A stretch of 64,000 nucleotides of DNA from Escherichia coli (GTDB lineage: Bacteria; Pseudomonadota; Gammaproteobacteria; Enterobacterales; Enterobacteriaceae), in assembly GCF_003334355.1 (NCBI RefSeq), contig NZ_QOWP01000020.1. One strand, written 5' to 3'. Under the pieces are notes generated by a model. That model searched no databases and was not told the DNA's origin. It was given only the letters and a program-made list of their open reading frames with translations. Shown in pieces: positions 48,910 to 55,326 of this stretch. Every line of letters starts with the position of its first letter. The first letter of the stretch is position 1. The position numbers and the translations under genes are program-made.

Positions 48910-49674
48910 TCAGAGTCGCTGTTTTTCAGCGATATGGTGCTGACAAGCGGTGATAAAGCCCTCGAACAATATACGCGAAAGCGCGTACTCGCTACTGTTC
49001 CATTCCGGGTGCCACTGTACGCCCAGCGCAAAAGGATGATTGATGACGCTAACCGCCTCAACTAAGCCATCCGGCGAGCGAGCTTCAACACGCAACCGTG
49101 GGCTAACGACCTTCGCCCCTTGTCCATGCAGAGAGTTTACCCAAAAGTTGCTACATTCAGGTAACAACGCAGACAGTAATCCCCCCTCTTCAACCTGAAC
49201 TTCATGCGACGGTGCATATTGCTGTTCCACCGGCAGTTCGGGATCTTCCCGATGTTCCAGCAATTCAGGCTGTTCGCACAGCTTGCGATGCAACGAACCA
49301 CCGGTTGCCACCACCAGTTCCTGTAAACCCCGGCAGATGGCGAAAATGGGGATGCGCCTTTCGAGTGCGGCATTAATTAACGCCATGCTCAGAAGATCAC
49401 GCCCGGGATCGGCGTCAGGCTCATCGCCGTTTTCACCATATAGGTGCGGCTGCACATTGCTGGGACTACCAGGAAGATAAATGCCATCGAGTTTCGGCAA
49501 AAGTTGTTCAAGTAATGACGGTTCCGCCAGCGCATGTGGTAACGCAATTGGCAAGCCGCCTGCGTGGATGATGGCATTCAGGTACTTTTCTTGCAGAGTC
49601 TGGGTCGCATGACCCTTAAGCCTGTTCCTGCACATTACGACACCGATAACCGGATTGTTCATTATATTTTCCAT
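48910..49674 (-). CDS. puuD: gamma-glutamyl-GABA hydrolase PuuD
   Basis: ORF 48910..49686; likely start at 49674 (MENIMNNPVIGVV...), 254 aa; class-I glutamine amidotransferase-like. Confidence 0.93.
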   Translation of the reverse strand: MENIMNNPVIGVVMCRNRLKGHATQTLQEKYLNAIIHAGGLPIALPHALAEPSLLEQLLPKLDGIYLPGSPSNVQPHLYGENGDEPDADPGRDLLSMALINAALERRIPIFAICRGLQELVVATGGSLHRKLCEQPELLEHREDPELPVEQQYAPSHEVQVEEGGLLSALLPECSNFWVNSLHGQGAKVVSPRLRVEARSPDGLVEAVSVINHPFALGVQWHPEWNSSEYALSRILFEGFITACQHHIAEKQRL

Positions 49675-49885
49675 GCTCAATCTCACAAAGTGGACTAAAT
49701 TATCGCCATTACTGCGCTTTAAATGACCTTTATGTTCAATATTTTTTCAATCTAGCAGTGGGTTTTCATTTTTGCAAACTCAATTTAACATTTGACAAAC
49801 ATTTAGTTTGCATACAGATTCGAATGGTGGTCATTATATTTTACGCTTTGATAACGAGCGGAAAACAAACCAAAGGCGAAGAATC

Positions 49886-53124: not shown

Positions 53125-53370
53125 ATGAACCACGATATCCCGCTAAAATATTTTGATATTGCCGATGAGTACGCGACCGAATGCGCAGAGCCTGTCGCAG
53201 AGGCTGAACGCACACCGCTGGCCCACTACTTCCAGTTACTGCTCACCCGTTTGATGAACAATGAAGAGATCAGCGAAGAAGCCCAACATGAAATGGCTGC
53301 TGAAGCGGGGATTAATCCCGTACGCATTGATGAGATCGCAGAGTTTTTGAATCAATGGGGTAATGAGTAA
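53125..53370 (+). CDS. ymjA: small acidic protein YmjA (DUF2543)
   Basis: 81-aa ORF; matches YmjA. Confidence 0.85.
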
Positions 53371-53682
53371 TGATTTAATTGCAGACGATCGGTCAGTATC
53401 GTTGTCCGGATAAAGCGTTCACGCCGCATCTGGCTAACAATGACACGCACTGCAGCGTGCTTTAATGGGTTTCTCACGATCGTACCGCTCTGCTCCTCGC
53501 TAAGTTGTTCTGTGAGTTATAGTTATAGAGAAATCACGGGTACGAATGTTGAACAGATGGCGACGTCACCTGTTCAACGACCAACCACACGGCCCTCATT
53601 ACGACCCCTGAACACAAACGGTAATGGCAAATGTCATTAAATATTAGTAAGATAGCCTCTTTACATAAAATCCCTTAATATT

Positions 53683-55326
53683 ATGCGCCAGGTATTATCG
53701 TCTCTTTTGGTGATTGCTGGACTTGTGAGTGGTCAGGCAATCGCCGCGCCTGAATCTCCCCCGCATGCTGATATCCGCGACAGCGGTTTTGTCTATTGCG
53801 TCAGCGGGCAAGTCAACACCTTTAACCCATCCAAAGCGAGCAGTGGGTTAATTGTCGATACCCTTGCCGCCCAGTTTTATGATCGACTGCTGGATGTCGA
53901 TCCCTATACCTATCGCCTGATGCCGGAACTTGCCGAAAGCTGGGAAGTACTCGACAACGGCGCGACCTATCGCTTCCACCTGCGTCGCGATGTTCCGTTT
54001 CAAAAAACCGACTGGTTTACTCCCACTCGTAAAATGAATGCCGACGATGTGGTGTTTACCTTCCAGCGAATTTTTGACCGCAACAACCCGTGGCATAACG
54101 TCAACGGCAGCAACTTCCCCTACTTCGACAGCCTGCAATTTGCCGATAACGTGAAAAGCGTCCGCAAACTGGATAATCATACCGTTGAGTTCCGACTCGC
54201 CCAGCCGGATGCTTCTTTTTTGTGGCACCTCGCAACCCATTATGCTTCGGTCATGTCGGCAGAATATGCCCGGAAGTTAGAGAAAGAAGATCGCCAGGAG
54301 CAACTCGACCGTCAACCGGTCGGCACCGGTCCGTATCAGTTGTCGGAATACCGCGCCGGGCAATTTATTCGCCTACAACGTCATGATGACTTCTGGCGCG
54401 GTAAACCGTTAATGCCGCAGGTAGTGGTGGATTTAGGCTCCGGCGGCACCGGACGTCTGTCGAAACTCCTGACCGGGGAATGTGACGTTCTGGCCTGGCC
54501 TGCTGCCAGCCAGCTATCCATTTTGCGTGACGACCCGCGCTTGCGTTTAACGCTGCGTCCTGGGATGAACGTCGCCTATCTGGCATTTAACACCGCCAAA
54601 CCGCCGCTAAATAATCCCGCTGTCCGCCATGCACTGGCACTGGCGATTAATAACCAGCGCCTGATGCAATCCATCTATTATGGTACGGCTGAAACGGCGG
54701 CCTCTATTTTACCGCGCGCCTCGTGGGCCTATGACAACGAGGCTAAAATTACTGAATACAATCCGGCGAAATCGCGCGAACAGTTGAAGGCGTTGGGGCT
54801 GGAAAACTTAACGCTGAAACTGTGGGTGCCCACACGTTCGCAGGCGTGGAACCCCAGTCCACTGAAAACTGCCGAACTGATTCAGGCGGATATGGCGCAG
54901 GTTGGCGTAAAAGTGGTGATTGTGCCGGTAGAAGGTCGCTTTCAGGAGGCGCGGTTGATGGATATGAGCCATGATCTGACGTTATCCGGTTGGGCGACGG
55001 ACAGTAACGACCCGGACAGTTTCTTCCGTCCTTTACTGAGCTGCGCGGCAATTCATTCACAGACCAACCTCGCCCACTGGTGCGATCCGAAATTCGACAG
55101 CGTGTTGCGTAAGGCGCTCTCCTCGCAGCAGCTGGCGGCGCGTATTGAAGCCTATGACGAAGCGCAGAGTATTCTGGCGCAGGAATTGCCCATTTTGCCG
55201 CTGGCGTCGTCATTGCGTTTGCAGGCCTATCGGTACGATATCAAAGGTCTGGTACTTAGCCCGTTTGGTAACGCCTCCTTTGCTGGGGTGTATCGCGAGA
55301 AACAGGATGAGGTGAAAAAACCATGA
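53683..55326 (+). CDS. sapA: periplasmic binding protein SapA
   Basis: 547-aa ORF with signal peptide; SBP family 5. Confidence 0.94.

Follow-up and report, generated by a model that had tools for sequence, protein, structure and literature searches.

An mRNA stabiliser of the ompA type protects its transcript when the stem stands almost at the 5' terminus. The hairpin considered here, in the leader of Escherichia coli sapA, resembles the ompA element in being stable, in belonging to the sense strand, in lying near the 5' end of the leader and in having no U-tract, but it lies 13-18 nt in from the 5' end and is not conserved between species. The operators of PuuR and other dimeric helix-turn-helix proteins are built of two-fold half-sites by promoters, and the sapA half-site even contains the TGAACA of the PuuR site; the centres of the sapA half-sites, however, are 22 bp apart, and the site is not conserved, occurs as a single copy and does not contain the AT-rich part of a PuuR site. 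As in leader-peptide control regions, a short coding-like ORF opens the leader of about 150 nt in Citrobacter, Klebsiella and Lelliottia, whereas E. coli has ACG in place of the start codon, a terminator hairpin followed by a U-tract is missing, and the length of the peptide varies (4-28 aa). Quasi-palindromes, finally, are reportedly subject to template switching, which acts as a mutational bias. As at such hot spots, variants of the sapA repeat differ mainly in the completeness of their complementarity (9+4 pairs, 9+4 pairs with a G-C, or a perfect 14 bp) and local polymorphism is raised, although the A53555T variant and the cluster of changes in strain N96 move away from complementarity. 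The sapA feature is ordinary: it is a polymorphic, E. coli-specific leader hairpin, not a conserved regulator site, and it matters little in itself.

The window, by which we mean the whole 64,000-nt stretch of E. coli DNA that was analysed, carries puuA, puuP, ymjA and sapABCDF in this neighbourhood; sapABCDF is annotated in K-12 as a putrescine exporter. The spacer between ymjA and sapA is identical to that of E. coli K-12 MG1655, and RefSeq annotates no feature in it. Window position x corresponds to position 1410793 - x of NC_000913.3, complement, which places the repeat at K-12 positions 1357215-1357245. What had been presented as a long leader of 313 bp is a spacer of 312 nt (53371-53682) that is leader only in part. 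Coordinates of the features are collected in the table.

Features of the ymjA-sapA region (window coordinates)
Feature	Coordinates	Strand	Remarks
ymjA	53125-53370	+	upstream gene; its promoter also gives ymjA-sapA co-transcripts that carry the repeat
Distal sapA promoter core	53516-53535	+	published starts at 53530 and 53535; block invariant in Escherichia
Relic type-A uORF frame	53542-53640	+	ACG for ATG at 53542; in-frame AUG at 53557; stop TAA at 53638-53640
Left arm, GTTGAACAG	53548-53556	+	codons 3-5 (GTT GAA CAG) in the frame of the relic leader uORF
Spacer of the repeat, ATGGCGACGTCAC	53557-53569	+	13 nt; in-frame AUG at 53557-53559
Right arm, CTGTTCAAC	53570-53578	+	lineage-specific half of the repeat
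C-rich, G-poor tract	53579-53620	+	directly 3' of the hairpin; GC skew -0.48 to -0.57
Proximal sapA promoter	53648-53660	+	start at 53660; block conserved in 27/27 type-A loci
sapA coding sequence	53683-55326	+	first gene of sapABCDF

Published maps of transcription start sites (TSSs) locate the promoters of this region. In the SMRT-Cappable-seq data (Yan 2018, PMC6131387, Supplementary Data 2), sapA and sapABC transcripts start at K-12 position 1357133, that is, at window position 53660. The same study (Yan 2018, PMC6131387) contains a distal sapA start at 1357263 (window 53530), as well as b1295/b1294(/b1293) transcripts, that is, ymjA-sapA(-sapB) co-transcripts, with starts at 1357699/1357701. 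A further sapA start, at old coordinate 1355282 (window 53535), was supported by 2 reads and defined a 148-nt UTR (Kim 2012, PMC3415461). The 5' UTRs of sapA are thus 23 nt long from the proximal promoter and 148-153 nt long from the distal one. The Cappable-seq supplement contained no coordinates within range, a consensus scan found no promoter in the region, and the promoter ATGACA-15-TTTAAT (53440-53466) predicted by Shimada 2014 was left unsupported by both TSS maps. Inspection of the sequence suggests TAAGAT (53648-53653) as the -10-like hexamer of the proximal promoter, and TATAGT (53518-53523) and TATAGA (53524-53529) as those of the distal one. These last two hexamers, 6 nt apart, are created by a tandem GTTATA GTTATA that is absent from Citrobacter and Klebsiella, and each of the distal starts lies 6-7 nt downstream of one of them.

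Given the distal starts and the ymjA-sapA co-transcripts, we conclude that the repeat is transcribed. It occupies positions +14 to +49 of the mRNA from the distal promoter and the middle of the ymjA read-through mRNA, 82-112 nt ahead of the proximal start; of the three classes of sapA mRNA, only the short proximal one lacks it. The organization of the locus is thereby clarified: sapA is served by two mapped promoters and by read-through from ymjA, and the repeat is found in the long leader only.

An inverted repeat of the form GTTGAACAG-N13-CTGTTCAAC had been claimed upstream of sapA, and it is indeed present in the window, within the sequence ...gtacgaatGTTGAACAGatggcgacgtcacCTGTTCAACgacc...; its arms are perfectly complementary (9/9) and 13 nt apart. 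The preliminary description had it at 53547-53579, which is one non-complementary base too many on each side (T/G), and about 105 nt from the start of sapA, which is accurate, the distance from the end of the right arm to the sapA ATG (53683) being 105 nt. Inward, the repeat can be extended to 15/15 positions with two mismatches. Perfect repeats of at least 9 bp with loops of 3-20 nt occurred at 8 distinct loci in the window, versus 4.5 +/- 2.1 expected from first-order Markov random sequences, and about 1.9% of random 312-nt spacers held one such repeat. A single perfect 9/9 repeat is therefore at about the level of chance, with a marginal excess only. On either side of the hairpin there is also a direct repeat, TACGAATGTTGAACA (53541-53555) and TACGACCCCTGAACA (53600-53614).

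The + strand RNA of the repeat was predicted to fold into a hairpin in which 9 bp are followed by an A.C mismatch, a further 4 bp and a loop of GAC, with a free energy of -15.9 kcal/mol (z = -2.96; 1/200 shuffled sequences was as stable). In the predicted fold, A53557.C53569 forms the 1x1 mismatch, and the inner stem, UGGC/GUCA, includes a G53560.U53566 pair. A similar fold was predicted for the minus strand, but its z was weaker (-1.95). The same hairpin appeared in both the MFE and the centroid structures of the whole 186-nt leader, and the leader as a whole is not unusually structured (z = -0.86). The E. coli leader retains two AUGs (53546 and 53557), both of which lie inside the stem or abut it. 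The stem is followed by CGACCAACC and not by a U-tract, and no terminator-like site was found on either strand between 53100 and 53800; an intrinsic terminator, such as that of ymjA, was therefore rejected. The C-rich tract downstream of the stem could be read as rut-like. An Rfam scan (E <= 10) gave no match over the repeat. A REP/BIME element, dispersed repeat or mobile element was discarded as well, since megablast placed the sequence at a median of one location per genome. So was a 5' stabiliser of the ompA type: the stem starts 13 nt downstream of the TSS at 53535, or 18 nt downstream of the TSS at 53530, which is too far.

To compare species, one genome of each was scanned, which yielded 80 sapA loci. 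Only in the three Escherichia loci is ymjA located upstream of sapA. The DNA immediately upstream of sapA falls into two unrelated but internally conserved types, A and B. Type A was found at 27 loci, in Escherichia, most Citrobacter, Klebsiella, Raoultella and one Lelliottia, and type B at 51 loci, in Salmonella, Enterobacter, Kluyvera, Buttiauxella and others, where the pspF stop codon is about 110 nt upstream. Both types occur within Citrobacter, and also in genomes named Lelliottia nimipressuralis (locus L025 is of type A, locus L034 of type B). This mosaic distribution suggests that the whole promoter module was replaced or recombined.

Homology of type-A loci to the E. coli spacer extends from about 53495 to the ATG and takes in both promoter blocks and the left arm. 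The two arms have different histories. The left arm is invariant in Escherichia except for A53555T in one E. coli lineage (also MOD1), and it is homologous to a block conserved in Citrobacter and Klebsiella, ATG AAY nnn GAY CAG. The homologue of the right arm reads CAGTGCGAC in E. whittamii and CAGTGCAAC in Escherichia SCPM-O-B-8794, differing at 2-3 of 9 positions, and the right arm was non-complementary to the left in 21/23 of the non-E. coli type-A genomes compared. At homologous positions, 7/9 pairs could form in C. amalonaticus, 6/9 in Lelliottia and 1-5/9, which is the random level, in the other genomes outside Escherichia. This comparison indicates that T53574 and A53576 arose on the branch leading to E. 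coli. Predicted stability was -6.4 and -7.8 kcal/mol in other Escherichia species, versus -12.0 to -23.3 kcal/mol in E. coli. Among the sequences compared, the repeat is confined to E. coli and one close clade. The idea that other genera conserve a structure at this position was rejected, since fold z-scores there were mostly about -1 and homologous pairing was mostly random. Different small hairpins do occur in these genera: TCGCGA-N8-TCGCGA in many Citrobacter and, nearby, GTTGGT-N6-ACCGAC in Klebsiella.

The conserved element at this place is a short upstream ORF. Type-A genomes outside Escherichia have an ATG at the column of 53542, which starts an ORF of the form ATG AAY nnn GAY CAR GTn GCG ATG YTG AAY..., whose peptide, MNxDQVAMLN..., is 4-28 aa long. 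In a Citrobacter-like set, entropies at codon positions 1/2/3 were 0.33/0.56/1.08 over codons 2-7, a substitution pattern that looks coding-like. In Escherichia the column of 53542 is ACG, or GTG in MOD1-EC7003; two Citrobacter show ATA there, and K. spallanzanii TTA. The conservation of the left arm is explained by this ORF, since GTT GAA CAG are its codons 3-5; the right arm lies in a poorly conserved part of the uORF region. The type-A uORF was seen 10-15 nt past the distal promoter at loci L006-L017, L025 and L033-L047. We regard the type-A module with its conserved uORF, and not the repeat, as the place to seek regulation of sapABCDF.

Variation within the species was monitored by counting exact 55-mers in 5,426 complete E. 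coli genomes, of which four haplotypes account for 95%. The K-12 form was present in 1,712 genomes (32%; predicted -15.9 kcal/mol) and a form with T53566C, which changes the G.U pair to G-C, in 1,661 (31%; -18.6 kcal/mol). Addition of C53569T to T53566C, found in 743 genomes (14%), gives perfect 14-bp arms with a 3-nt loop and a predicted -23.3 kcal/mol; T53566C and C53569T thus turn the spacer stepwise into perfect pairing. The remaining haplotype, A53555T + T53566C + C53578T, has a U.U mismatch and a terminal G.U pair (1,045 genomes, 19%; -12.0 kcal/mol). The perfect outer stem is kept in about 76% of the 5,426 genomes. Among rare forms, C53561T keeps its pair as a wobble, and in strain N96 a cluster of five base changes breaks two outer pairs. 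The N96 right arm (locus L085) has become CCTGAACA, the same as the downstream copy of the direct repeat, which hints at a templated mutation or short-patch conversion between the direct repeats.

When pair changes were counted on nine distinct Escherichia haplotypes, none of the 14 pairs had changed on both sides, 4 showed wobble changes only and 6 had departures to an unpaired state; there were no compensatory changes, and shuffle controls were not exceeded. In 11 divergence-spread E. coli spacers, 9/31 positions of the repeat were segregating versus 35/281 in the rest of the spacer (5/31 versus 34/281 without N96). Since the repeat is not less polymorphic than its flanks, it appears from these alignments to be under no visibly stronger constraint than the remaining spacer. 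Both promoter blocks are almost invariant within E. coli and far better conserved than the repeat.

The preliminary description had proposed either the operator of a dimeric regulator or an RNA stem, and these results separate the two. An RNA stem is compatible with them, the repeat being transcribed and the stem surviving a fold of the whole leader; the operator is disfavoured by the lack of further copies and by arms that are not conserved. As an operator, the repeat would be bound by a dimeric or tetrameric transcription factor at two 9-bp half-sites with centres 22 bp, or two helical turns, apart, and the factor would block initiation or elongation at the distal promoter, its site lying at +14 to +49, or would influence the proximal promoter from -97. 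The perfect two-fold symmetry of the K-12 arms (9/9), the position just downstream of the distal start, which is classic for a repressor, and the 31-bp near-palindrome, perfect (14/14) in 14% of genomes, would all suit such a site. The checks that had been proposed included further copies of the half-site and conservation in other sapA promoters. No other exact copy of the half-site was found in the window, and copies with one mismatch were no more frequent than chance would give (18 versus 13.6 +/- 3.6 expected); both arms are kept only in E. coli and one close clade. Since copies and conservation are both lacking, the operator fails by the measure proposed along with it. The composite site, allowing up to 3 mismatches, matched one unrelated place only in the window and is present in one copy per genome; neither the sister Escherichia species nor the other genera that have the homologous promoter module conserve its right arm; in 19% of E. 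coli genomes the two arms carry different mismatches; and the two promoter blocks are the far better conserved elements.

Evidence on particular regulators also speaks against an operator. The consensus of the nearby regulator PuuR, AAAATATAATGAACA, matched the window 6 times versus 2.0 expected, including sites in the puuA-puuD spacer at 49656-49670, 49733-49747 and 49828-49842 (minus strand) with 0, 2 and 1 mismatches. It has at least 6 mismatches at the repeat, which remained unmatched at up to 3 mismatches and whose arms differ from it at 6 and 9 of 15 positions by manual count; a PuuR site was accordingly rejected. The LexA, MetJ, FadR, CytR and PhoP consensus sequences fit in neither orientation nor spacing, a comparison that serves as a lead only. 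A full-text literature search found no report of transcription factor binding for sapA, and no regulator of sapABCDF was found in the literature searched. In the part of the PPTP-seq data available to us, the row of the sapABCDF promoter was flat (about 3.0-3.4 log units across transcription factor knock-downs), and its highest values coincided with highs of the ymjA row. A true operator would have been useful for understanding sapABCDF, but the evidence argues against one, and we consider it unlikely.

The reading that we tentatively prefer, while giving it somewhat less than an even chance, is that of a young, lineage-specific quasi-palindrome in a transcribed leader that acts, if it matters at all, as an RNA stem-loop. 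Several substitutions favour pairing in the + strand RNA: C53561T, C53578T and T/C at 53566 keep a G.U or G-C pair, C53569T makes an A-U pair, and predicted stability increases towards the E. coli haplotypes. Against a functional stem stand the U.U mismatch in the outer stem of 19% of E. coli genomes, the lack of covariation and the mostly unpaired state of homologous positions in the other type-A genera. A close rival, and itself a serious possibility, is that the quasi-palindrome is a neutral by-product with no function in DNA or RNA, arising within an unconstrained, decaying uORF by drift of a weak ancestral complementarity towards a palindrome or by template-switch 'correction'. The near-chance occurrence of a 9/9 repeat in 64 kb, the limitation to E. 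coli and one close clade, the absence of covariation, a density of segregating sites at least as high as in the flanks, and the existence of both a major lineage with a broken stem and the rare N96 allele with its clustered 5-base change are all consistent with neutrality. Changes that lead only towards or away from perfect complementarity are, moreover, said to be the expected signature of template switching. Yet complementarity was gained in one direction through several independent substitutions, reaching 14/14 in 743 genomes, which is improbable under unbiased drift, and the single-base variants of E. coli are biased towards pairing in the sense-strand RNA, in numbers too small for significance. 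The directional gain itself fits either selection or a quasi-palindrome mutational bias.

If the preferred stem-loop reading is correct, the stem would have been built inside the remnant of the leader uORF, whose ATG Escherichia has lost. Its left arm would be old, preserved as conserved uORF codons, and its right arm would have gained complementarity through substitutions on the E. coli branch. The hairpin may then lock up the AUGs at 53546 and 53557 together with the 5' part of the leader, and the long leader would thereby be kept untranslated and compact ahead of the C-rich tract. The effect would be at most a modest one, adjusting the amount of translatable sapABCDF mRNA that arises from distal and read-through transcription. 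A literature search found no data on expression, half-life or 3' ends of the long sapA leader, and in the accessible part of the Term-seq supplement of Adams 2021 neither sapA nor ymjA was listed.

A stronger role for the leader was also considered. The hairpin would belong to an attenuator, Rho-dependent or coupled to translation, in which it would act with the relic uORF and the C-rich tract to decide whether distal and read-through transcripts terminate before sapA. Speaking for such an arrangement are the C-rich, G-poor tract that abuts the hairpin on its 3' side, the conservation of a leader uORF at the corresponding position in other genera, and the length of a leader that precedes a transporter operon. 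No intrinsic terminator is present, however, the start codon of the uORF is missing in E. coli, and the literature contained no report that we could find on Rho, bicyclomycin or 3' ends at sapA. SMRT-Cappable-seq recovers sapABC transcripts in full length from both the distal start and ymjA, and those from the distal start argue against strong termination. We consider an attenuator very improbable. In a variant that we hold to be just as improbable, the type-A module of about 190 nt would be a conserved two-promoter leader whose uORF acts as a translation-coupled sensor for the putrescine exporter; in E. coli, with ACG put in place of the uORF start, the hairpin would have evolved as a substitute switch, possibly a polyamine-responsive one. 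Polyamines stimulate translation from poor initiation signals. Were this the case, the inverted repeat would be the visible part of a rewired attenuator.

Several other elements were observed near sapA. A near-palindrome, TAATGGCAAATGTCATTA (53622-53639), spans -38 to -21 relative to the proximal sapA start, forms a hairpin in the fold of the leader and is almost invariant in Escherichia and in the Citrobacter type-A modules. Because it is conserved and overlaps the -35 region, it is a better candidate for a sapA operator than the repeat originally reported. After ymjA, at about 53400-53435, there is a single degenerate REP-like element, GTTGTCCGGATAAAGCGTTCACGCCGCATCTGGC, which is unannotated in the K-12 RefSeq record and absent from Escherichia sp. 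MOD1-EC7003, where the spacer is 226 nt long; a weak Rfam match to naRNA4 at 53404-53471 (22 bits, below gathering) reflects this degenerate REP. The annotation of E. coli 2014C-3655 (locus L082) gives sapA as a pseudogene with a frameshift. In Enterobacter, Lelliottia, Leclercia and their relatives, type-B promoters contain an inverted repeat of their own, GCACTTAC-N24/25-GTAAGTGC, at -80 to -40 from sapA (loci L021, L022, L024, L027, L029, L034, L037, L048, L049, L054, L059, L062 and L074); its arms are conserved and its spacer is variable, and the right arm overlaps a conserved GTGCGATACACTT block.
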